Positions 2,809 to 64,000 are shown, counted from the stretch's first letter. The stretch is 64,000 bases of DNA from an uncultured Planctomycetota bacterium (GCA_964389785.1 CAYMFW010000002.1:813-64812), one strand, 5' to 3'. The notes: generated by a model from the letters alone, not told the origin. Numbers and translations are program-made.

Positions 2809-3705
2809 ATGGCACACGCGACGCTGGAGGCAATCCGGACGGCGGAGCTGGTCGGCAGGGCGCTGAAAGCCGGAACGGTCGTTCCCGGCTTCAACATTCC
2901 GTACCTTCCCATGATGGAACCGGTGGTCCGGGCGCTGCGAGACACGCACAGCTTCGGGTTCATCATGGTCGCCCGGCTGGAATGGATGAAGTTCGAATCG
3001 GGGAGCCTGGAAAAGGTCCGCGACGAGTACGAGCGGGTAAAGGACCTCGATCACACGCGCCTCCATCTCGATCACGTGCCCGTGATCGATGAAGACGACG
3101 TGAGAGTGGATTACCAGGATGTCCTGCGGCGCGCCGTCGAGGCGGGTTACGATTCGATCATGATCGACGGCTCACGCCTGCCGCTCGAGGAGAATATCGA
3201 CTGCACGAAGCGCGCCGTGGAGATAGCCCGCTCCGCCGGCATCCCCGTCGAGGCGGAGCTCGGCGCGGTGATGGGTCACGAGACCGGTCCCCTTCCCCCC
3301 TACGACCAGCTCTTTGCGTCGGGCAGGGGGTTCAGCGATCCGGACGAGGCGAGACGCTTCGTGGAAGAGACAAACGTCGACTGGCTTTCCGTCGCCATCG
3401 GGAACGTTCACGGGGCGATATCGGCCGCCCGCAAGAACGAGAAGAAGATCGAGGCCCGGCTGGACATCGGCCGCCTCGATGAGATCCGGGCGGCGATCGA
3501 CGTCCCCCTGGTCCTGCACGGCGGCACCGGAATCGCCAGGAAGTACATCCTGGAATCGATCCGGCACGGCATCGCCAAGGTGAACGTGGCAACGGCGATC
3601 CGCCAGCCGTACGAAAGAGAAGGGCTGCAGGCGGTCTACCCGGCGATGCTCGCCGTGATCCGCGAGGACCTGCAGATCGAGAATAGCGCGGAGCTTCTGA
3701 AGTAG
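2809..3705 (+). CDS. class II ketose/fructose-bisphosphate aldolase family protein
   Basis: Motifs LHLDHVP, YDSIMIDGS, EAELG, GNVHGA and LVLHGGTG are the hallmark metal and substrate motifs of class II FBP/tagatose-BP aldolases. Confidence 0.85.
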   Translation: MAHATLEAIRTAELVGRALKAGTVVPGFNIPYLPMMEPVVRALRDTHSFGFIMVARLEWMKFESGSLEKVRDEYERVKDLDHTRLHLDHVPVIDEDDVRVDYQDVLRRAVEAGYDSIMIDGSRLPLEENIDCTKRAVEIARSAGIPVEAELGAVMGHETGPLPPYDQLFASGRGFSDPDEARRFVEETNVDWLSVAIGNVHGAISAARKNEKKIEARLDIGRLDEIRAAIDVPLVLHGGTGIARKYILESIRHGIAKVNVATAIRQPYEREGLQAVYPAMLAVIREDLQIENSAELLK

Positions 3706-28240: not shown

Positions 28241-28519
28241 GTGATGAGGCTGTATATTGGGAACATGTCGTATGACATGACGGAGGACGATGTGAGGGAC
28301 CTGCTCGCCACTCATGGAGAGGTCGCCTCGGTGGATTTGATCACGGACAGAGATACCGGCCGCCCGAAGGGGTTCGGTTTCGCAGATATGCCGAATGATG
28401 CAGAGGCACAGGCCGCCATCAACGCGCTGAACGAGACTGAGATCCAGGGAAGGACCATCAAGGTCAACCAGGCTCGTCCGAGAGAGGAGAGGGGCGGCGG
28501 CGGCGGCGGCAGGTACTAA
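28241..28519 (+). CDS. RRM-type RNA-binding protein
   Basis: 92 aa with RNP-2 LYIGNM, RNP-1 KGFGFADM and a Gly-rich tail. An extended -10 TGtTAGAAT lies at 28214-28222. Confidence 0.9.
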   Translation: MMRLYIGNMSYDMTEDDVRDLLATHGEVASVDLITDRDTGRPKGFGFADMPNDAEAQAAINALNETEIQGRTIKVNQARPREERGGGGGGRY

Positions 28520-28541
28520 ATCCGATAGAAGCGCACAGACG

Positions 28542-28576
28542 GCCGCGCGGGCACACGCTCGCGCGGCTTTTTTATT
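28542..28576 (+). terminator. rho-independent terminator of the RRM gene
   Basis: gccgcgcg-ggcacacgct-cgcgcggc followed by ttttttatt: an 8-bp GC stem plus T run, 23 nt after the stop. Confidence 0.8.
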
Positions 28577-28596
28577 CCAATCTCCTTCCACAGGCG

Positions 28597-28784
28597 TTCT
28601 GAGATTTTCGAACACGGCGGGAGCGGGATACTCCTGAACGAGTTCGTGGTGAGACGAACGGGCCGAAGGCCCTTCCATAGTCCGTCGAACCGCGACCTCG
28701 GAGGCGCCATATCCGCATCCATGGCGCCGAGAATGAGTGAAGGGGTGTCCCGCTCCCGCATTCACGTGTTCGAAAATCTCAGAA
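28597..28784 (+). ncRNA. conserved structured element X, copy 1 (core 28617-28759 plus an extra 20-bp outer stem); candidate ncRNA or structured DNA repeat
   Basis: An 18-bp closing stem pairs 28617-28634 with 28742-28759. The internal blocks TGAACGAGTTCG, CGAACGGGC, GTCGAA, CCTCGGAGGCG and GCCGAGAATGAGTGAA are all shared with 63579-63723. The outer perfect 20-bp inverted repeat 28597-28616 / 28765-28784 overlaps the FadL-type gene stop codon. The strand call rests on two G-U pairs that form only in plus-sense RNA. Confidence 0.55.
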
Positions 28785-30077
28785 CTTCCACTCGTACCCG
28801 ACGTAGAGCTCGTGCGTGGTGACGCCGTAGTCGGCGCCCGGAACGTATCCGCCGGCATCAGGACCGAACGCGTACGTGTATCCCATGTTCAGCGTGTTGC
28901 CCCCGACGTCCACGCCCGCCCCGATGGAAAGCTTCCACGTGTCCACCACCAGCCCCCCCACCAGGGTGCGGTAGCGCTTGGGCTCGGGCGCCTCGTCGTA
29001 GAGCGCCCCGCAGCGAAGCGTCCAGCGGAGACCGGCCTTCCGCTCGTAGCCGACGGCGTACAGCACCACGTTCTTCCAGCGGGCCGGGTTGCCGTCCGAG
29101 TCGTCGAAGATCCCGGGAATCGGGCTGCCGTAGCTCGTCTTCTGCCGGTACGCACGCCAGCCCATCCACGTGGCGGAAAGCGCCAGCAGGCTCTTCTCGT
29201 CCGGGCGAAAGGCCAGGCCGGCCGCGATGCGCGTCGGGTAGTACGTCCTCACCGTAGTGCTGGTCGAGACGGTGAGCGGAATGAGCGAGTTCACCACCGT
29301 AGAGTCGCCCTTCCTCTCGAACGAATACGGCAGCTTGAGGACCAGGCCGACCGAGGTGCGCGCGCTCGGCCTTGCCAGCATGCCCAGGTTGAAGCTGAAG
29401 CCGATCCCGTCGGTGTCCTGGTTGGATTTCATGGTGTACGGAACCGCGCCGGTGCGGCACTTGTTGCAATCGACGTCGAGCAGGCCGTAGTGAAGCGCCA
29501 TCCGCACGCCCAGGTCGAGCACCGGCGAGGCGCGGTAGCCGAGCACCAGCGGGACGTTGGCCGACCCGTTCGTAAAGCTTATCTCTCCCTTCAGCGTATC
29601 GCCGCCCCCGGTCTGCATCGAGTCCTCCCACCCGGTGCCGGAGCCGGATCCGTACAGGCCGGTGCCGAACGCGATCCGGTCCCGCCGGGCGATGTACCCC
29701 AGCGCGATGGCGTGGATGGGCGCGACGATCTTCTTTGCGCTGAACGAGACCGGCTCGTCGCCGATGGGGTCGAAGAAGTCGCCGCGCGACGGGTCGCCGC
29801 CCGCGGCCAGGTTGCGGAGCGATTCGGACGAATACCCCCCGCCGGTGAAGAACTCGTACTCCAGACCGAAGCGGCGCCCCTCCGTCTGCGCGATGCCCGC
29901 CGGGTTGTAGTGGACGGCCGACCAGTCGTCGGCCACGCCGACCATGGCGTAGCCCATGGAGCGGCTGCGGGTGCCGATGCCGTTCGGCTCGGTGCCCGAG
30001 CCGCGCGCCCTCGACCCGCCGGCCAGCATCAGGGCCGCACAGAAGAGCACCTGTGATATTCCAGAAATTCGTTTCAT
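28779..30077 (-). CDS. outer-membrane transport protein, OMPP1/FadL/TodX family
   Basis: 432 aa with a signal peptide. ..GTRSRSMGYAMVGVADDWSAVHYNPAG.. is typical of the FadL family. The beta-barrel pattern ends in the terminal YVGYEWKF aromatic signature. Confidence 0.75.
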   Translation of the reverse strand: MKRISGISQVLFCAALMLAGGSRARGSGTEPNGIGTRSRSMGYAMVGVADDWSAVHYNPAGIAQTEGRRFGLEYEFFTGGGYSSESLRNLAAGGDPSRGDFFDPIGDEPVSFSAKKIVAPIHAIALGYIARRDRIAFGTGLYGSGSGTGWEDSMQTGGGDTLKGEISFTNGSANVPLVLGYRASPVLDLGVRMALHYGLLDVDCNKCRTGAVPYTMKSNQDTDGIGFSFNLGMLARPSARTSVGLVLKLPYSFERKGDSTVVNSLIPLTVSTSTTVRTYYPTRIAAGLAFRPDEKSLLALSATWMGWRAYRQKTSYGSPIPGIFDDSDGNPARWKNVVLYAVGYERKAGLRWTLRCGALYDEAPEPKRYRTLVGGLVVDTWKLSIGAGVDVGGNTLNMGYTYAFGPDAGGYVPGADYGVTTHELYVGYEWKF

Positions 30078-30230: not shown

Positions 30231-33200
30231 ATGGGGAGCAGGACGATTGGGCGGCGCGTGGTCGTTGCATCGTGTGCCTTCCTTGCCGCCTGCGCCCTCA
30301 TCCTCTTCCCCTCCATCGTGCCCGGCTCCTTCGCCGATGAGCCGGCAGACGTACCCGGCATCGGCTCCGCCGCCCGCTACCTGACGGGAACCTTCCGCGA
30401 CAGGAACGGCAAGAGCATCGACAGGATGGTCGTGCCCGGACGCCGACCGCCGAAGGTGAAGATGGCCGTCGCGTCCGTGCCGCGGGGCATTGTCGCCCTC
30501 GGGGCGAACGGGCTGGCCGACGTTCCCGCCTTCGACTGGTCCTACGGGTGCTCCGCCACCTCGGCCGCGATGATGATGGGCTACTACGACAACCTGGATT
30601 ACACGAACATGTACACCGGACCGACCAACGGCGGGGTCTGCCCCATGAACAACTCCACCTGGGGCGACGGCGAGTGCCCGCTGAGCGCGACGCACCAGGG
30701 ATACGACGGCCGCGGCATCAAGGGCCACGTGGACGATTACTGGGTCTCATACGGGAGCCCGGCGACCGATCCGTGGGTCGGCAGCTGGGCGGAGCATACC
30801 CTGGGGGACTGCACCGGCGACTACATGGGCACCAACCAGTCGGAGCTGAACAACAGCGACGGGTCGACGACGTTCTACAACTATACGGACGGCGAGCCGC
30901 TGTACGACTACACCGCCTGTGAGCCCGACAGGAGAGACGGCTGTCACGGGATGCGGCTCTTCGCGGAGTCGCGCGGCTACTGGGTGGAGGAGAACTTCTC
31001 CCAGTACATCTACGGGTACGACGACAACACGAAGGGCTTCACCTTCGCCGATTACCAGGCCGAGATAGACGCCGGGCGGCCCGTCGTGATCCAGGTGGCC
31101 GGCCATTCGATGCTCGGCACCGGATACGACACGGATACCTCCCTGGTCTACCTGCACGACACGTGGGATCACAACTCCCATTCGATGACGTGGGCAGGCG
31201 AGTATTCCGGCATGGAACACTACGGCGTGGCCGTGATCCGGCTCGCCCCGGCGGCCAAGCTGTCCGTCGCGGACGTGCAGGTCGACGAGGGCGCGGGCAC
31301 CGCCACGGTGACGGTCACCATGACGGGAAAGAGCTGTCTCGCGGTCTCCGTCACCTACGCCACGTCCGACGACACCGCCACCGAGGGAAACGACTACACG
31401 GAGGCGACGGGGACCCTGACGTGGAGCGCCGGCACCAACGGCGACAGGACGTTTTCCGTGACGATCGCCGAGGACGCGGTGTCCGAAGGAAACGAAACGG
31501 TGAGCATAACCCTGTCCGGCGCGCAGAACACGCTGATAGAGGACGGAAGCGCCGTGCTCACCATCCTGGACAACGAGAGCCCGGACATGGTGGTCGATCC
31601 GGTGTCCGGCCTTACCACCACGGAGGCGGGAGGTACCGACACCTTCACCATCGTGCTCGACACCAAGCCCTCCCACGACGTGACGATACCCCTTTCCAGC
31701 TCGAACCCGGACGAGGGAACGGTGAGCCCCGCATCCGTCACGTTCACCCCCGGCAACTGGGACACCGCCAGGACGGTGACGGTCACGGGCGTGGATGACG
31801 ACGCGGACGACGATAATGTCGCGTACACCGTCATCACCGGCGCCGCGACCAGCTCCGACGCCGGCTACGACGGAGTCGATCCGGACGACGTGTCCGTGAC
31901 CAATAACGACAACGATACCGCCGGCATCACGGTCAGCCCCACCGGCGGGCTTCAGACGACGGAGACCCTGGGAATCGCCACGTTCACGATAGTGCTGGCG
32001 ACCGCGCCGACACACAACGTGACGATAGCGCTCACCACCTCGGACGATACGGAGGGGACTGTGTCCCCCGCGTCCGTTACGTTCGTCCCGGGAGAGTGGA
32101 ACGACCCGAAAACGGTGACGGTGACGGGGGTCGACGACGTGCAGGTCGACGGCCCCGTCGGCTACAACATCGAAACCGCGGCCGCCGTCAGCGACGACGC
32201 GAAATACTCCGGCATCGACCCGGACGACGTGTCCGTGACGAACACGGACAACGACACCCCCGGCATCACCGTGACGCCCACGAGCGGGCTGACGACCACC
32301 GAGGCGGAGGGCACCGCGACCTTCACCATAGTGCTCCACACACAGCCGACCCACGACGTGACGATAGCGCTTTCCAGTTCGAACACCGACGAGGGAACGG
32401 TCTCTCCGGCCTCCGTGACGCTCACGTCCGGTAACTGGGACACGCCCAGGACGGTGACGGTGACCGGCGTGGGCGAAGACATCGACGACGGGGACGCCGC
32501 GTATACGATAGTCACGGCCGCCGCGGAGAGTGACGATCTCGTTTACCACGGCGTGAATCCCGATGACGTGTCCGTCACGAATATCGACGACGACACCGCG
32601 GGCGTGACGGTAGACCCCGCGTCCGGCCTTACCACGACGGAGGCGGGAGCGTTCGACACGTGTACGATCGTCCTGGACTCCGAGCCGACCGCCGACGTGA
32701 CGATACCCCTTTCCAGCTCGAACGCGGACGAGGGAACGGTGAGCCCCGCGTCCGTCACCTTCACTTCCGGCAACTGGGATACCGCGAAGACGATAACGGT
32801 GACCGGAGTGGGCGATTCGATCGACGACGGCGACGTCTCCTATCATATAGTCACCGGCGCCGCGACGAGCGGCGATGGAAAATACTCGGGAATGGACGCG
32901 GAAGACCCGTCGGTTACGAACACGGACGACGACACGGCCGGCGTCACCGTGTCCCCGACGTCCGGCCTGGTGACGAGCGAAGCCTCGGGCGGCGCCGGCT
33001 TCACGGTGGTGCTCACGAGCGAGCCGACCCACGACGTGACGATACCGCTTTCCAGCTCCGACGCGACGGAGGGAACGGTATCCCCCTCTTCCGTGACCTT
33101 CACTTCCGCCGACTGGGACCAGGCGAAGCCGGTGTCGGTGCAGGGCGTGAACGACGACGTGGATGACGGAAACGTGGGGTACACGATAACCATCGGCCCG

Positions 33201-36200
33201 GTGACGAGCGATGACGCGACGTACGCCGCGATCGACCCCGACGACGTATCGGTCGTCAATAACGACGACGACACCGCCGGCGTGACCGTCGCGCCCGTAT
33301 CCGGGCTGGTCACCTCGGAGGGCGGGGCAACCGACTCGTTCACGGTGGTACTGACGAGCGAGCCGACGGACGACGTGACGATAACGTTTGTCAGCTCGGA
33401 CGTGACGGAGGGGACCGTCTCGCCCGGAGCGGTGACCTTTACCGCCGGCAGCTGGGATGAAGCGGTCCCGATAACGGTAACCGGCGTGAACGACGACATG
33501 GCGGACGGCGATGTCTCCTACAGCATACTCGTCGCCGCCGGAAGCGCCGACGGCACATACGCCGCCATCGATCCGGCCGACGTATCGGTCACCAACGACG
33601 ACAACGACATGCCGGGAATAACGGTGACCCCGTCGGACGGCCTGGTCACCTCCGAAGGCGGCGGCACCGCCGAGTTCACGATAACGCTCAATACCCGTCC
33701 GGGAGAAAACGTGACGATCAGCCTGGACACCTCTGACTCCGGCGAGGGGATCGTATCGCCGGCGTCCTGTACGTTCACGCCGGGCACCTGGAATAACCCC
33801 AAGACGGTGACGGTCACCGGCGTGAACGACGACGTGGACGACGGGGACGCGGCCTACCAGGTGCTCACCGCCGCGACGAGCGGTGACCCCGACTACGACG
33901 GCATCGACACGCTGGACGCGTCCGTGACGAATACGGACGACGACACCGCCGGCGTGACGGTGACCCCCACGGAGGGCCTGACGACCACGGAGGCGGAGGG
34001 CTTCGCCGAGTTCACGGTGGTGCTGGACAGCGAGCCGCTCGACTGGGTGGAGATCACCTTCGGCAGCTCCGACTACAGCGAGGGCTGGGTGGCGCCCGAC
34101 GCGATCTACTTCAGCCCCGGTGATTGGAGCACGCCCAAGACGGTGTGCATCGTCGGTGTGGACGACGACGTGGACGAGGGCGACGTGACGTATACCGCCA
34201 TTGTGGACCCGGCGGGCAGCAACGACCAGACGTACCACGGCATAGACCCGGCGGACGTCTCGGTGACGAACATCGACGACGACACGGCCGGCCTCTCCAT
34301 CAGTCCCACCGGGGGGCTGGTGACCACGGAGGCGGGCGGCACCGCGACCTTCGTCGTCACGATGGCCAGCGAGCCGACGTCGGCGGTGACGATCGACCTG
34401 ACGAGCACGGACGAGTCGGAGGGCCGGGTGAGCCCCACTCCGCTCGTATTCATGGCCGCGAACTGGAGCAAGACCCACACGGTGACGATCACGGGGCAGG
34501 ACGACGCCGTCGCCGACGGCACCGTGGCGTTCCAGGTGATAACGGACGCCGCCGTCAGCGACGATCCGCTCTACAGCGGGACAGACCTCGACGACGTGGA
34601 CGTCACCAATGACGACAACGAGGTACCCGGCGTAACGATAAATCCGACCGGCGGACTGACAACCACCGAGGCGGGCGGCTTCGCCGAATTCAGCGTATCG
34701 CTCGGATCGGAGCCAGCGGCGAGCGTCACCGTCGGGTTCTCCGTTTCGGACCCGTCGGAGGGCCAGGTGACGCCGGCGGAGGTGATCTTCACGAACCAGA
34801 ACTGGGATACGGTGCGGACGGTGACGGTGACCGGTATCGACGACGACGCGGACGACGGCGACGCGGGCTATAGCGTGGTGTCCGGCGCCGTGGTAAGCGC
34901 GGACCCGGTGTACGACGGCATAGACCCGTCCGACGTGTCGGTGACGAATACCGACGACGACACCGCCGGCATAACGGTCACCCCCACCGAGGGGCTGGTG
35001 ACCACGGAGACCGGGGGAACGGCAGCGTTCACCGTGGTGCTGACGAGCCGTCCGGGCGGCGACGTGACGATCGGCGCGGTCAGCTCGGACCTCGACGAGG
35101 GAACGGTCAGCCCTTCGTCCCTGGTGTTTTCCGACACCACCTGGGACGAGCCGCAGACGGTGACCGTGACGGGAGTGAACGATGCCCTGATAGACGGTCC
35201 GGTTCCCTTCAGCGTGGTTCTCAGCCCGGCGGTCAGCGCCGATGAGGGCTACGACGGGATCGATCCGCCCGACGTCGCGGTAACGAACGCGGACAACGAC
35301 TCTCCCGGCATAACGGTCAGCCCGGTATCCGGCCTGGTCACCACGGAGGCGGGAGGCACCGCAACGTTCAGCGTCGTCCTCAATACGATGCCCACCGCGA
35401 GCGTCGAGGTCGGGCTCTCCAGCTCCGATACCGGCGAAGGAACGGTCTCGCCGGAAACGGTAACCATCACGGCCGCCGGATGGAACGTTCCCGCGATAGT
35501 AACGGTGACCGGTATCGACGACGCGGTGGACGACGGCGACATCGCCTTCACGATAGTGACGGCCGCCGCGGTCAGCGCGGACGGCGACTACGACGGCCGG
35601 GACCCGTCCGACGTCGACGTAACGAATGCCGATGATGATGAGCTCCCCACGATCAGCTTCGACGCGCCGTCGTCGAGAAGCCCCGAATCCGATTCGTTTC
35701 CGGCTCTCACCGTCTCCCTGAGCGCCGCGTATGCGCTTCCGGTGACGGTCGAGTGCGCGGTGACGGGCGGCACGGCGGACGAGGGAACCGACTTCGTTCT
35801 CCCGGGCGGCACGCTGACGTTCGCGCCGGGCGAGACCGTCGCGACCGTTCCCCTGACGGTGACCGACGACGCATTCGACGAGCCGGACGAGACGCTGGAG
35901 ATAGCCATATTCGACCCGGTGAACGCGGCACTGGGCGCGACGCGCTCACATACCTGTACCCTGGGAGATGACGACGACGTGCCGACGGTCCAGTTCCATT
36001 CCCCGATTTCCGAAGCCGACGAAGCGTGCGGTACCGCCCATATCAACGTGACGCTCTCTTCCGTTTCAGGAAAGACGGTGACCGTCGCGTATTCGGCCGC
36101 CGGAGGCACCGCGGAAGCGGGAGCCGACTACGTGCTCAACGGCGGCGCGCTGTCGTTCGCGCCCGGGGAAACGACCGCGGGTATTTCCCTCACCGTCACG

Positions 36201-37652
36201 GACGACGCGCTGTGCGATTCCGGCGAGACGGTGATCGTGCGGCTGTCCGGCCCGGTCAGCGCCGCGCTCGGCACGGACGACTATCACACCTGCGAGCTGA
36301 ACGACGAGGACCTGGACGGGGACGGGCTGTCGGACGACTGGGAGAACGCGTATCTGGGCGGAACGGACGCCGGCCCGGATGACGATGGCGACAATGACGG
36401 GGCGTCGAACGGCGACGAGAGCGACGCGGGGTCCGACCCCTCCGATCCGGATACGGACGACGACGGCGTCTATGATGGAAGCGACGACTTCCCGACCGAC
36501 CCGGACGAACAGACGGACACGGACGGTGACGGCGTCGGCAACAACCTGGACACCGACGACGACAACGACGGCGTCGAGGACGGAGAGGACGCGTTCCCGA
36601 CGGACCCGGGCGAGCAGACGGACACGGACGGTGACGGCACCGGCAACAACGCGGACACGGACGACGACGATGACGGGGTCTCCGACGAACGGGAAGGAGA
36701 GATCGGAACGAATCCTCTCGATCCCGATACGGACGGGGACGGCACGATCGATTCCGGCGCTGGAACCGACTCCGACGGGGACGGCATCGTGGACGACGCG
36801 GACGACGAGGACCTGGTGCCGATAGAGGACTCCGACACGGACGGTGACGGCACGCCGAACCGCGACGACGAAGACGACGACGGCGACGGCATTCCGGACG
36901 TATCGGACGAATTCCCGTACGACACCGATAACGACGGCCTGCTGAACGGCGCCGACGACGACGACGACAACGACGGCATCGCGGACGCGATCGACGACTA
37001 CCCGATGGACACCGACAACGACGGGCTTGACAACGCCGCCGACGAGGACGACGACGGCGACGGAGTGGCCGACGTGATAGAAGCGGAGCTGGGAACCGAC
37101 CGGCTCATCGGCACGGGGGACGACGCTCCCGACATTGCGCTGCCGGAACCCGTGACGATCGATCCGACGATACCCGGCACCGTCACGTACGACTACTCCG
37201 GGCTCGAGGGCTACACGTGGGCCACGTCAATCCTGTTCGTGTACCGGGCCCAGGAGCTTACCGGGACGCTCGCCCCCATCGTCAGCATTCCGAAGCCGGA
37301 CGAAGACGCGGACGCGGACGTGCCCGGCGGCTACATGGTTGCCGGCGCCGTCTTCGACATAATCGGAGAGATAGCTTCGGGACAGACCGTCCTGCTCCCG
37401 CTTCCCCTGCCGGACGAGCTCAGGGACCGGGGCCTGACCGAAGAGGACGTTGTCGTGCAGATGTTCGACGGCGAAACGTGGCAGGACGAGGGAACGGTTA
37501 TCAGTGTCGCCGACGGCGTGGTGACGACGGAGGTCTCCCACTTCTCCCGCTGGAGAATCCTGGTGCCGGCACCCGCCGGTTCGAGCGGAGGCGGCGGCGG
37601 CTGTTTCCTGCGATCCGCCGGAGGGGCTTTCTTTTCCCGCAACCAGGACTGA
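30231..37652 (+). CDS. giant secreted adhesin-like protein: papain-like (C39-like) N-domain, Calx-beta domains, 12 tandem ~113-aa repeats, thrombospondin-type-3 Ca-binding repeats
   Basis: 2473 aa with a signal peptide. FDWSYGCSATSAAMMMGYYD (Cys) ... VAGHSMLGTGYD (His) form a papain-like pair. The Calx-beta pattern ..VTYATSDDTATEGNDYTEATGTLTW..G....F.V.I..D...E.NE.. appears at aa ~345-450 and twice near aa 1810-2020. The Asp-rich DTDGDGVGNNLDTDDDNDGV repeats span aa ~2030-2290. Confidence 0.85.
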   Translation: MGSRTIGRRVVVASCAFLAACALILFPSIVPGSFADEPADVPGIGSAARYLTGTFRDRNGKSIDRMVVPGRRPPKVKMAVASVPRGIVALGANGLADVPAFDWSYGCSATSAAMMMGYYDNLDYTNMYTGPTNGGVCPMNNSTWGDGECPLSATHQGYDGRGIKGHVDDYWVSYGSPATDPWVGSWAEHTLGDCTGDYMGTNQSELNNSDGSTTFYNYTDGEPLYDYTACEPDRRDGCHGMRLFAESRGYWVEENFSQYIYGYDDNTKGFTFADYQAEIDAGRPVVIQVAGHSMLGTGYDTDTSLVYLHDTWDHNSHSMTWAGEYSGMEHYGVAVIRLAPAAKLSVADVQVDEGAGTATVTVTMTGKSCLAVSVTYATSDDTATEGNDYTEATGTLTWSAGTNGDRTFSVTIAEDAVSEGNETVSITLSGAQNTLIEDGSAVLTILDNESPDMVVDPVSGLTTTEAGGTDTFTIVLDTKPSHDVTIPLSSSNPDEGTVSPASVTFTPGNWDTARTVTVTGVDDDADDDNVAYTVITGAATSSDAGYDGVDPDDVSVTNNDNDTAGITVSPTGGLQTTETLGIATFTIVLATAPTHNVTIALTTSDDTEGTVSPASVTFVPGEWNDPKTVTVTGVDDVQVDGPVGYNIETAAAVSDDAKYSGIDPDDVSVTNTDNDTPGITVTPTSGLTTTEAEGTATFTIVLHTQPTHDVTIALSSSNTDEGTVSPASVTLTSGNWDTPRTVTVTGVGEDIDDGDAAYTIVTAAAESDDLVYHGVNPDDVSVTNIDDDTAGVTVDPASGLTTTEAGAFDTCTIVLDSEPTADVTIPLSSSNADEGTVSPASVTFTSGNWDTAKTITVTGVGDSIDDGDVSYHIVTGAATSGDGKYSGMDAEDPSVTNTDDDTAGVTVSPTSGLVTSEASGGAGFTVVLTSEPTHDVTIPLSSSDATEGTVSPSSVTFTSADWDQAKPVSVQGVNDDVDDGNVGYTITIGPVTSDDATYAAIDPDDVSVVNNDDDTAGVTVAPVSGLVTSEGGATDSFTVVLTSEPTDDVTITFVSSDVTEGTVSPGAVTFTAGSWDEAVPITVTGVNDDMADGDVSYSILVAAGSADGTYAAIDPADVSVTNDDNDMPGITVTPSDGLVTSEGGGTAEFTITLNTRPGENVTISLDTSDSGEGIVSPASCTFTPGTWNNPKTVTVTGVNDDVDDGDAAYQVLTAATSGDPDYDGIDTLDASVTNTDDDTAGVTVTPTEGLTTTEAEGFAEFTVVLDSEPLDWVEITFGSSDYSEGWVAPDAIYFSPGDWSTPKTVCIVGVDDDVDEGDVTYTAIVDPAGSNDQTYHGIDPADVSVTNIDDDTAGLSISPTGGLVTTEAGGTATFVVTMASEPTSAVTIDLTSTDESEGRVSPTPLVFMAANWSKTHTVTITGQDDAVADGTVAFQVITDAAVSDDPLYSGTDLDDVDVTNDDNEVPGVTINPTGGLTTTEAGGFAEFSVSLGSEPAASVTVGFSVSDPSEGQVTPAEVIFTNQNWDTVRTVTVTGIDDDADDGDAGYSVVSGAVVSADPVYDGIDPSDVSVTNTDDDTAGITVTPTEGLVTTETGGTAAFTVVLTSRPGGDVTIGAVSSDLDEGTVSPSSLVFSDTTWDEPQTVTVTGVNDALIDGPVPFSVVLSPAVSADEGYDGIDPPDVAVTNADNDSPGITVSPVSGLVTTEAGGTATFSVVLNTMPTASVEVGLSSSDTGEGTVSPETVTITAAGWNVPAIVTVTGIDDAVDDGDIAFTIVTAAAVSADGDYDGRDPSDVDVTNADDDELPTISFDAPSSRSPESDSFPALTVSLSAAYALPVTVECAVTGGTADEGTDFVLPGGTLTFAPGETVATVPLTVTDDAFDEPDETLEIAIFDPVNAALGATRSHTCTLGDDDDVPTVQFHSPISEADEACGTAHINVTLSSVSGKTVTVAYSAAGGTAEAGADYVLNGGALSFAPGETTAGISLTVTDDALCDSGETVIVRLSGPVSAALGTDDYHTCELNDEDLDGDGLSDDWENAYLGGTDAGPDDDGDNDGASNGDESDAGSDPSDPDTDDDGVYDGSDDFPTDPDEQTDTDGDGVGNNLDTDDDNDGVEDGEDAFPTDPGEQTDTDGDGTGNNADTDDDDDGVSDEREGEIGTNPLDPDTDGDGTIDSGAGTDSDGDGIVDDADDEDLVPIEDSDTDGDGTPNRDDEDDDGDGIPDVSDEFPYDTDNDGLLNGADDDDDNDGIADAIDDYPMDTDNDGLDNAADEDDDGDGVADVIEAELGTDRLIGTGDDAPDIALPEPVTIDPTIPGTVTYDYSGLEGYTWATSILFVYRAQELTGTLAPIVSIPKPDEDADADVPGGYMVAGAVFDIIGEIASGQTVLLPLPLPDELRDRGLTEEDVVVQMFDGETWQDEGTVISVADGVVTTEVSHFSRWRILVPAPAGSSGGGGGCFLRSAGGAFFSRNQD
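31581..35642 (+). repeat. 12 tandem coding repeats (~339 bp / ~113 aa each) inside the giant gene
   Basis: The unit is (P/A)G(I/V)TV.P..GL.T(T/S)E.GG.A.F...L...P...V.I.L.SSD..EG.VSP..V.F....W...(K/R)TVTVTG(V/I)(D/N)D...DG...Y.(I/V)......S.D..Y.G.DP.DV.VTN.D(D/N)D. I counted 12 consecutive units in the translation. Confidence 0.9.
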
Positions 37653-63578: not shown

Positions 63579-63723
63579 GCGGAAAGGGCAAGTTGCTGAA
63601 CGGGTTCGAGATTCGGCCGGCAGCCCGAACGGGCTATTCGATAAGCCGGTCGAAGCTCGCCCTCGGAGGCGAGCCCGTTCCTTATACGGGCCGAGAATGA
63701 GTGAAGCAACTTGCCCTTTCCGC
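63579..63723 (+). ncRNA. conserved structured element X, copy 2; candidate ncRNA or structured DNA repeat
   Basis: A 19-bp perfect inverted repeat pairs 63579-63597 with 63705-63723. It encloses the same five conserved blocks as copy 1. It ends 1 nt before the cobO-like stop codon and lies 45 nt upstream (in the minus sense) of the glycogen synthase start. Confidence 0.55.
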
Positions 63724-63724
63724 C

Positions 63725-64000
63725 TCAAAATTCTATCCCTTTTTGCGCCTTCACGCCGCCGGCGTAGGCGTGCTTGATCTCCTTCATCTCCGTGACGGTA
63801 TCGGCCGCCGCGACGATCGAATCCGGGCAACCGCGCCCGGTCAGCACCAGGTGCACCGGCTCCGGCCGGGCGGCTATCAGCCCGGTGATGTCGTCTTCGC
63901 TCAGGAGATTCTCCTTCACGGCCAGCAGCGCTTCGTCCGCGACCACCATGTCGTAGTCGCCGGAGGCGAGCCCCTCCCTCACGCGCTCCAGCGCCTTTCC
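63725..64000 (-). CDS. cobO: cob(I)yrinic acid a,c-diamide adenosyltransferase (CobO/BtuR type), C-terminal part; gene continues past the right edge
   Basis: ..YDMVVADEALLAVKENLLSEDDITGLIAARPEPVHLVLTGRGCPDSIVAAADTVTEMKEIKHAYAGGVKAQKGIEF matches the conserved C-terminus (..VLTGR....L...AD.VTEM...KH.......A..GIEF). The frame stays open to position 64000. Confidence 0.85.
   Translation of the reverse strand, partial: GKALERVREGLASGDYDMVVADEALLAVKENLLSEDDITGLIAARPEPVHLVLTGRGCPDSIVAAADTVTEMKEIKHAYAGGVKAQKGIEF

Follow-up and report, generated by a model that had tools for sequence, protein, structure and literature searches.

The 64,000-nucleotide (nt) stretch of DNA analysed here (the window), from an uncultured Planctomycetota bacterium, carries two copies of a structured repeat, Element X, at positions 28617-28759 (copy 1, 143 nt) and 63579-63723 (copy 2, 145 nt). 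The repeat is new: it resembles miniature inverted-repeat transposable elements (MITEs), and has an unusually deep, RNA-like conserved core. The family to which both copies belong is uncatalogued, non-coding and multi-copy, with members of ~125-230 bp, and its module consists of a ~19-bp closing stem plus a ~105-nt core that forms a three-way junction. The explanation that we favour, with a probability of about 0.5, is that a mobile MITE-like family carries a conserved RNA module constrained on the + strand. That the element is widespread, absent from Rfam, covarying, constrained on one strand, mobile, housed in different outer shells, invertible and slow-changing is, taken alone, very probable; that the module acts as RNA is put forward tentatively.

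The two window copies have an identical block order, and the initial annotation of this DNA, which had aligned the two cores block by block, was correct in both its coordinates and its blocks. In copy 1 the parts are:

28617-28634, + strand: 5′ arm of the closing stem P1, which pairs with 28742-28759 (from the fold and covariation)
28635-28644, + strand: 5′ junction block UGAACGAGUU (from the alignment)
28645-28695, + strand: P2, a variable irregular hairpin arm of 51 nt (from the fold)
28696-28704, + strand: CCUCGGAGG, the 5′ strand of P3 (CUCGG) and then the conserved AGG bulge
28705-28726, + strand: P4, a variable hairpin of 22 nt (from the fold)
28727-28741, + strand: CCGAGAAUGAGUGAA, the 3′ strand of P3, the junction AAUGA, GU of helix P1b, the tandem G.A and a closing A
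28742-28759, + strand: 3′ arm of P1 (from the fold and covariation)
28760-28765, + strand: asymmetric 6-nt loop ATTCAC between P1 and an outer stem

In copy 2 they are:

63579-63596, + strand: 5′ arm of P1 (from the alignment and the fold)
63597-63606, + strand: 5′ junction block UGAACGGGUU (from the alignment)
63607-63660, + strand: P2 hairpin arm of 54 nt (from the fold)
63661-63669, + strand: CCUCGGAGG (from the alignment)
63670-63690, + strand: P4 hairpin of 21 nt (from the fold)
63691-63705, + strand: CCGAGAAUGAGUGAA (from the alignment)
63706-63723, + strand: 3′ arm of P1 (from the alignment)

In copy 1 the block UGAACGAGUU supplies a U-A pair, the tandem G.A, the A-C of P1b, GA and a UU bulge; most family copies carry GG in place of the GA after P1b. 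The window has exactly two occurrences of the 16-mer GCCGAGAATGAGTGAA. Eight of the 18 positions of the stem arms differ between the copies and all of these differences are compensated, and the U.G pairs 28629/28747 and 28632/28744 of copy 1 are present, both as had been reported. What had been described as variable segments prove to be hairpins, P2 and P4. The + strand folds with an energy of -87.7 kcal/mol in copy 1 (z = -9.07) and -88.7 kcal/mol in copy 2 (z = -7.48), and none of 200 shuffles was equally stable; the minus-strand folds are weaker (-79.1 and -82.4 kcal/mol, respectively). We agree with the initial annotation that one copy is not a recent duplicate of the other: both are old and have diverged, and they fall into two subfamilies (w1-like and w2-like), which are also found together on a related GC-rich contig, L008 (loci recovered from the collections are designated by L and a number).

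The family was searched for with a split pattern of 23 bases (CTCGGAGG-N10-40-CCGAGAATGAGTGAA), which matched 39 metagenome contigs and 22 contigs of species-representative genomes; a first, too strict pattern (GAACGNGTTCG...GAGAATGAGTGAA) had given no match in the genome collection. The genome matches were mostly metagenome-assembled genomes (MAGs) of Nitrospirota/Thermodesulfovibrionales and Nitrospinota, with a single match each in Deltaproteobacteria, Latescibacterota and Giovannonibacteria, a lineage of the candidate phyla radiation (CPR). A match in Saccharibacteria lay inside a ribosomal-protein gene and was discarded as chance. A profile search of the recovered loci with nhmmer yielded ~75 copies, including diverged ones that the pattern had missed. 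Several contigs hold two to three copies, and MAG JACQBS01 carries one on each of four contigs, compared with two in the 64-kb window. Contig L051 has three copies in 8 kb in the orientations -, +, -, and this mixture led us to reject a fixed orientation relative to replication. A mini version found in Latescibacterota (L037:1718-1801, the same as L043:4069-4152) closes with a stem of 9 bp; it lacks UGAACGG and P2 but retains CCUCGGAGG-hairpin-CCGAGAAUGAGUGAA. The host lineage of the window itself is poorly sampled: for the FadL-type protein encoded beside copy 1, the closest homologues named 'Planctomycetota MAG' are 45-51% identical and the top match overall reaches 58%.

The element matches no Rfam family; the initial annotation had likewise been unable to place it with a riboswitch or ribozyme consensus. 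Covariance models of Rfam 15 gave no match at the gathering score anywhere in the window; with a permissive threshold (E≤10) nothing overlapped either window copy, and with E≤5 nothing overlapped eight other family members. To our knowledge, the fold bears no likeness to the consensus motifs of the hammerhead, twister or hairpin ribozymes, the k-turn, the C/D box, loop E, 5S rRNA or phi29 pRNA. A k-turn was rejected because the pair beside the G.A tandem covaries as a Watson-Crick pair and the required 3-nt bulge is absent. String and keyword searches of the literature returned no description of the element. A phage or plasmid origin was also rejected: blastn gave no match in the phage collection and only chance 30-nt matches to Rhizobium plasmids in the plasmid collection, and the pattern had no match in the viral-contig collection.

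One plan is common to 42 distinct full cores. From 5′ to 3′ it reads P1, a U-A pair, tandem G.A/A.G, P1b, GG-NUU, P2, (N)C-CUCGG, the AGG bulge and P4, and on the 3′ side CCGAG-AAUGA-GY-GA-A followed by the 3′ arm of P1. P1 is a closing stem of ~19 bp (mostly 16-24 bp when measured ungapped), P1b is a 2-bp helix of RC with GY, and in the family P2 ranges from 11 to 81 nt, with a median of 17 bp, and P4 from 9 to 24 nt. The architecture is that of a three-way junction between P1 with its tandem G.A, the P2 hairpin, and the arm made up of P3, the AGG bulge and P4. Among 28 members, standard pairs fill 95.3% of the cells of P1, P1b and P3, compared with 67.9% in shuffles and ~40% when the partners were slid; the covariation score is 0.743, a value that none of 500 shuffles reached, against 0.200, and double changes are seen in 18 of the 26 pairs. 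P1, P2 and P4 all covary. The claim that conserved unpaired blocks stand beside covarying stems, made from the two window copies, is supported.

The rarer variants obey the same plan. In the UGAGC...GAGCGAA variant the A-U pair of P1b becomes G-C, and the G-U intermediate is present in at least nine copies, with A.C in none. Where UUCAC or UUCGC replaces UGAAC, the G.A tandem is exchanged for Watson-Crick pairs; a CUGAG variant forms a G.U pair within P3, and in L054:1009 P3 and P4 are merged into a continuous helix. The variants keep the CUCGG/CCGAG pairing of P3. A switch between two mutually exclusive pairings, which had been suggested, is unsupported, the alternative amounting to a 2-bp hairpin. 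Selection appears to act on the three-way-junction fold.

The fold is constrained on the + strand of the window, as RNA or as single-stranded DNA. The pair adjoining the tandem G.A is A-U, G-U or G-C and never A.C, and in P1 there are 56 G.U against 21 A.C, many of the latter at the fraying outer end. Over the whole element the + strand is on average 6.1 kcal/mol more stable than its complement (dG(+) minus dG(-) = -6.1 kcal/mol), and it is the more stable one in 35 of 39 sequence clusters (Wilcoxon p~1e-6), a difference of which the invariant G.A tandem accounts for part. It is this greater stability, together with the excess of G.U, that shows the constraint to lie on one strand. The initial annotation had suggested a plus-strand RNA or single-stranded DNA form; the strand was right, and either form agrees with the data. 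Over all copies taken together, the 5′ arm of P1 is purine-rich on the folded strand (254 G-C against 141 C-G, and 216 A-U against 174 U-A), and is often GGAGG-like.

The family is mobile as DNA, and whole units insert with short target duplications. In L032 and L063 a whole type-A unit lies in the spacer between rubrerythrin and hisZ, flanked by duplicated AGAAG (5 bp), and in L064 and L065 (HisZ 87% identical) the orthologous site is empty and reads uninterrupted through ...ATAAAGCAGAGTTC... A second polymorphism was found in the spacer between ilvD and a radical-SAM gene, where L072 and L070 have a ~300-nt block with another copy of the element that L071, L011 and L023 lack. Direct repeats of at least 6 nt flank the element at 47% of 45 loci, against 27% in a shuffled-partner control, and the length of the flanking repeats varies from 5 to 8 bp between lineages. 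The outer arms of AT-rich copies are of type A (CCCAAATCCCGATATAGAA with CCCTAAAACAGAGATAGAA) or type B (CCTAAATTGAGCGATTT at both ends), each with 5-bp flanking repeats (one further 5-bp case was recognized by eye). GC-type arms include 28596-28615 with 28766-28785 of the window, and elsewhere P1 itself is terminal. CC ends with a 4-5-bp duplication are what we take to be the mark of the IS1380 family. At one orthologous intergenic site, the element at L072:2433-2550 is inverted with respect to L011:5323-5438, L023:3824-3941 and L071:2271-2387, and its inner P1 arms are swapped, which suggests an in-place inversion between the P1 arms. In size (below ~300 bp), lack of coding capacity, terminal inverted repeats, target duplications with empty sites and many dispersed copies, the family conforms to the definition of a MITE; terminal inverted repeats with target-site duplications in further copies, which the initial annotation had said would count against its reading, are present in relatives.

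The part of the element that is kept is not the part expected of such a repeat. The near-invariant portion is central and unpaired and is maintained across phyla, and the termini are of at least three unrelated types or are missing. Within a single Nitrospinota MAG, the type-A copy L060 and the type-B copy L053 are 97% identical in the core and only 58-68% identical in the P1 arms. Furthermore, the four-fold degenerate sites of the flanking genes are less conserved than the element in each of the 11 orthologous pairs compared. In nine of them the element is 90-99% identical and the four-fold sites 69-94% (for example 98.6% against 84.0%, 97.0% against 81.3%, 90.1% against 73.0%, and 91.3% against 68.9%), and in the other two the values are 89.6% against 84.4% and 73.3% against 54.5%. 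Compensatory changes in P1 and P2 are seen between orthologues. Resident copies are kept intact either by selection or by gene conversion. Because the core is conserved centrally, the shells differ, L060 and L053 form a mosaic, the element can invert and it changes more slowly than four-fold sites, we conclude that it is not an ordinary MITE.

Copy 1 is surrounded by a further inverted repeat, which touches the end of the FadL/Toluene_X gene on the minus strand:

28585-28591: left CTTCCAC direct repeat, candidate target-site duplication of copy 1
28596-28615, + strand: left arm of the outer inverted repeat (5′ side of P0) GTTCTGAGATTTTCGAACAC, homologous to the outer arms of L001 and of L008:3596
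28766-28785, + strand: right arm of the outer inverted repeat (3′ side of P0), in perfect 20-bp pairing with the left arm
28785-28791: right CTTCCAC direct repeat, within the FadL codons E-W-K

The last codon (28782-28784) and the stop codon (28779-28781) of this gene lie within the right arm. The perfect 20-bp repeat described previously is real, and it is not peculiar to copy 1. Its arms (TGAGATTTTCGAACAC) are homologous to those around the L001 copy and the second L008 copy, whose neighbouring genes are unrelated and likewise have stop codons that touch the arm end, and a 5-6-nt asymmetric loop separates the arm from P1 in each case (ATTCAC in copy 1, CTCAC in L008, AGGGA in L001). Hence, the outer repeat belongs to the element, and its origin as a copy of the FadL gene end was rejected as the sole explanation. 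The CTTCCAC 7-mers lie 24 nt outside both ends of P1. The FadL C-terminus (...VGYEWKF) has a family-typical length and ending (homologues end in VGxxx[KR]F), which speaks against a simple duplication and indicates that AAG-TTC-TGA is older than the insertion. Copy 1 may thus represent an insertion at a stop codon with terminal microhomology, or a palindrome that grew outwards by arm-to-arm copying. For an empty-site comparison, the nearest FadL relative is only 58% identical and has another neighbourhood. Copy 2 has neither outer arms nor a detectable duplication.

Nearly all copies adjoin a stop codon, at distances of 0 nt (FadL) and 1 nt (CobO) in the window, where the minus-strand CobA/CobO gene has its stop codon (63725-63727) just after the P1 3′ arm of copy 2. 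Across loci there is neither a conserved neighbouring gene nor a shared neighbour family. By crude open reading frame (ORF) calling, 16 copies are antisense between tandem genes, five are sense between tandem genes, eight lie between convergent genes and five between divergent genes. From the antisense placement it follows that the + strand is often outside the neighbouring mRNA. A transposase or reverse transcriptase gene was not found among the genes of the window, whose ORFs are metabolic, transport or envelope functions, and no TnpB, IscB, IS110 recombinase, nuclease or reverse transcriptase gene is adjacent to the copies. No intrinsic terminator belonging to the element was found, and P1 is not followed by a U-tract.

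Under the reading that we favour, a putative + strand transcript would be the constrained molecule, functioning as a structured RNA module in its own right. For the long P1/P0 duplex we envisage RNase III-type processing or a hairpin that insulates a 3′ end, and a protein-binding platform could be built from the tandem G.A, the AGG bulge and the invariant junction. Such a module would make insertions beside stop codons tolerable or useful, and would be kept while transposases of different families move it. Several observations count against this. The target duplication of the window copies is ambiguous in copy 1 (CTTCCAC) and lacking in copy 2, and some copies have decayed (the L016 group, L070, and L012, the last by deletion of its 5′ half at an orthologous locus). 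The slow change of resident copies could stem from gene conversion between copies and not from selection at the level of the host, and covariation in inverted repeats can also arise in DNA, by arm-to-arm conversion or quasipalindrome correction. Judged from the crude ORF calls, about two thirds of the copies run antisense to the gene at whose stop codon they lie; no partner protein was found in the window or at the other loci, no sigma-70-like promoter was found upstream of either window copy or of one AT-rich copy, and no autonomous insertion sequence (IS) sharing the termini of the element was found in 480 kb of recovered loci or in the window.

Some of these points would be expected if the element were a palindromic MITE acting only as DNA, its stems maintained by arm-to-arm correction (gene conversion during inversion, or template switching) and its invariant blocks serving as binding sites of a transposase or host protein, or as part of a single-stranded DNA transposition intermediate. 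The target duplications, empty site, terminal inverted repeats and in-place inversion all fit, as do the divergence of P1 around a 97% identical core within one genome, the missing promoter, the occurrence of both orientations relative to genes and the presence of other, unrelated palindromic MITEs in the same genomes. However, symmetric conversion or a double-stranded site predicts no strand asymmetry, whereas G.U far exceeds A.C and 35 of 39 clusters have the stabler fold on the + strand. What is invariant lies unpaired at the centre rather than at the termini, and one core with at least three unrelated terminal types is unlikely to be the site of a single transposase. A single-stranded intermediate of fixed strand would fit the asymmetry, but transposition of the HUH type makes no target duplications. 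We regard an explanation without any RNA function, the chief rival, as rather unlikely. The strand asymmetry and the lack of a known family, which the initial annotation had noted, both stand; the element belongs to a mobile repeat family and is not a regulatory RNA private to these two loci.

A bolder proposal is that P1 and the core are themselves the active agent, i.e., a new class of mobile functional RNA that has spread across at least five phyla by way of palindromic transposon shells and is kept intact by selection at resident loci; it could be a ribozyme, could serve a mobile-element enzyme as RNA cofactor or guide, or could be a retro-mobile 'bacterial SINE', by analogy with short interspersed nuclear elements. 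As a class this seems unlikely to us. Its specific form, a trans-acting small RNA, ribozyme, RNA cofactor or retro-mobile RNA that inserts centrally into other palindromic repeats or rides in them as cargo, with the invariant junction recognized and P1 as a length ruler, is slightly less likely still. It would account for unpaired nucleotides that are invariant across at least five phyla while the stems vary freely, for the clustering of P1 at 16-24 bp, for a core that is always exactly central in different shells and is homogenized independently of P1, for flanking repeats of 5-8 bp that differ by lineage, and for purifying selection on resident copies. It is at odds with the lack of a match to any Rfam ribozyme or RNA family and of a reverse transcriptase, nuclease or recombinase gene near any copy, and with the constant 5-bp duplication of the type A and type B shells, as expected of a DDE transposase; no poly-A or 5′-truncation signature was seen, the 5′-truncated L012 being a deletion at an orthologous locus. 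A related idea, that P1 was a pre-existing target hairpin which received the core, is weakened by the clustered length of P1 and its homology within subfamilies, and the L060/L053 mosaic leaves room for it. The position of nearly all copies beside a stop codon, and a long stable hairpin whichever way the element lies, would suit an RNA that regulates the adjacent genes in cis (a riboswitch, attenuator or terminator, or an element that stalls ribosomes or stabilizes mRNA in the manner of repetitive extragenic palindromic (REP) sequences). But the genes beside the copies have no relation to one another, the element lies in either orientation and is flipped in one orthologue, an invariant three-way junction would be needless for a plain hairpin, and no U-tract follows P1, copy 1 lying behind a separate canonical terminator. 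With no recurrent neighbour and with copies mostly downstream of genes and often antisense, a riboswitch or other leader was rejected, and cis-regulation in general is very unlikely. To a small protein gene, in which P4 would bring the invariant GGAGG next to the invariant AUG 6 nt beyond P4 for translation of AUG-AGU-GAA onward, we give almost no credence: the frames run for 7-118 codons, the peptides are unrelated and have nothing in common beyond MSE, and the sole AGU-to-AGC change covaries with the opposite strand.

Comparison with known systems gives partial likenesses. Correia/CREE, ERIC, BOX, RUP and Bacillus bcr1 are restricted to a genus or family and are conserved mainly at their termini. 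Element X resembles these repeats in being small, non-coding, multi-copy, intergenic (usually after genes) and a long imperfect palindrome, with terminal inverted repeats, short target duplications, predicted hairpin RNAs and presence/absence polymorphism; it differs in that the termini vary and the central core is near-invariant in at least five phyla and strand-specific. With REP and REPIN sequences, which are mobilized by RAYT, it shares hairpin repeats after genes, compensated stems and a high copy number. However, a REPIN is a simple doublet of inverted REPs with a conserved 5′ tetranucleotide and no duplication, whereas Element X is branched and has a 5-bp duplication, and no RAYT was seen in the window or the recovered loci. 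Conserved unpaired bases, covarying stems and an association with mobile DNA are also features of the orphan Rfam motifs, HEARO/omega RNA, the IS605-orfB motifs, the IS110 bridge RNA and retron msr-msd, and the closing stem formed by the two ends recalls the a1/a2 stem of retrons; unlike these, Element X has no covariance-model match, partner gene, large programmable internal loops or guide-like flank.

Integron attC sites likewise combine variable sequence with a conserved, strand-specific single-strand fold at gene ends, and some have branched tips. They have outer R″/R′ boxes (RYYYAAC/GTTRRRY), extrahelical bases and co-oriented arrays, whereas in Element X the conservation is at the tip and the stems are perfect over 19 bp; it lacks RYYYAAC/GTTRRRY ends and is scattered among housekeeping genes in mixed orientation. 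As in invertons, inverted repeats flank a segment (here ~105 bp) found both ways round at one orthologous site, but the repeats (P1) vary in sequence, neither an invertase gene nor an internal promoter was found, and only one flip was seen.

Bacterial MITEs are normally viewed as lineage-specific junk in which only the transposase-binding ends are conserved. Here the pattern is reversed: the ends are interchangeable, and a strand-specific branched fold with invariant unpaired bases is common to Nitrospirota, Nitrospinota, Deltaproteobacteria, Latescibacterota, CPR bacteria and the GC-rich host of the window; resident copies evolve less rapidly than synonymous sites. This pattern points to a functional nucleic-acid module with transposons as vehicles. 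If the molecule that folds is RNA, a new class of structured RNA is well supported, by ~40 distinct cores with strong covariation; a fold formed in DNA would make it an unusual structure-specific recognition element. Annotation is affected as well, since copies overlap or adjoin stop codons (FadL, CobO) and mark rearrangement hot spots.

Near copy 1 the window holds two further features:

28241-28574, + strand: gene for an RRM_1 RNA-binding protein of 92 amino acids with a Gly-run tail, upstream of copy 1
30231-37652, + strand: ORF of 2473 amino acids adjoining FadL, with three Calx-beta domains

A textbook intrinsic terminator (28541-28568, followed by a T-run) closes the RRM_1 gene just upstream of copy 1, and an RRM_1 gene beside the element is not recurrent at other loci. 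The 2473-amino-acid product looks like a giant secreted or adhesin-like protein; it also has a weak Peptidase_C39-like match (E 1.6e-8), with no single stretch passing alone.

Other repeats and insertions were noted at the recovered loci. A 298-bp composite palindromic insertion, L050:1812-2109, which the orthologous L048 and L025 lack, has the ends CCCAAAAAAT and ATTTGGG and a duplicated TTAA, and holds two further long-stem hairpins. It belongs to another MITE family of the same Nitrospinota genomes. In the rubrerythrin-hisZ spacer of L063 (~1690-1730), a 32-nt perfect-stem palindrome (CCCGTTAGAAAG...CTTTCTAACGGGG) is inserted with a TTTAC duplication when compared with L032, and a longer insert at L060:1546-1625 lies between the same arms. 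At L060:6519-6618 a perfect closing stem of 19 bp encloses an unrelated insert of 62 nt with two hairpins (z -6.1); this may be another element of the 'closing stem plus cargo' kind. Beside the element, L055 (~3150-3210) has a REP-like hairpin, GTCATTCCCGCGAAGGCGGGAATCCAG, and L041 (upstream of 4700) has a tandem repeat, CCTTTGAC. Between the Nitrospinota relatives L038 and L042 synteny breaks (L038:1364 vs L042:882) ~9 nt before the outer arm of the second copy, L038:1373-1567, which suggests that element copies mark rearrangement points.

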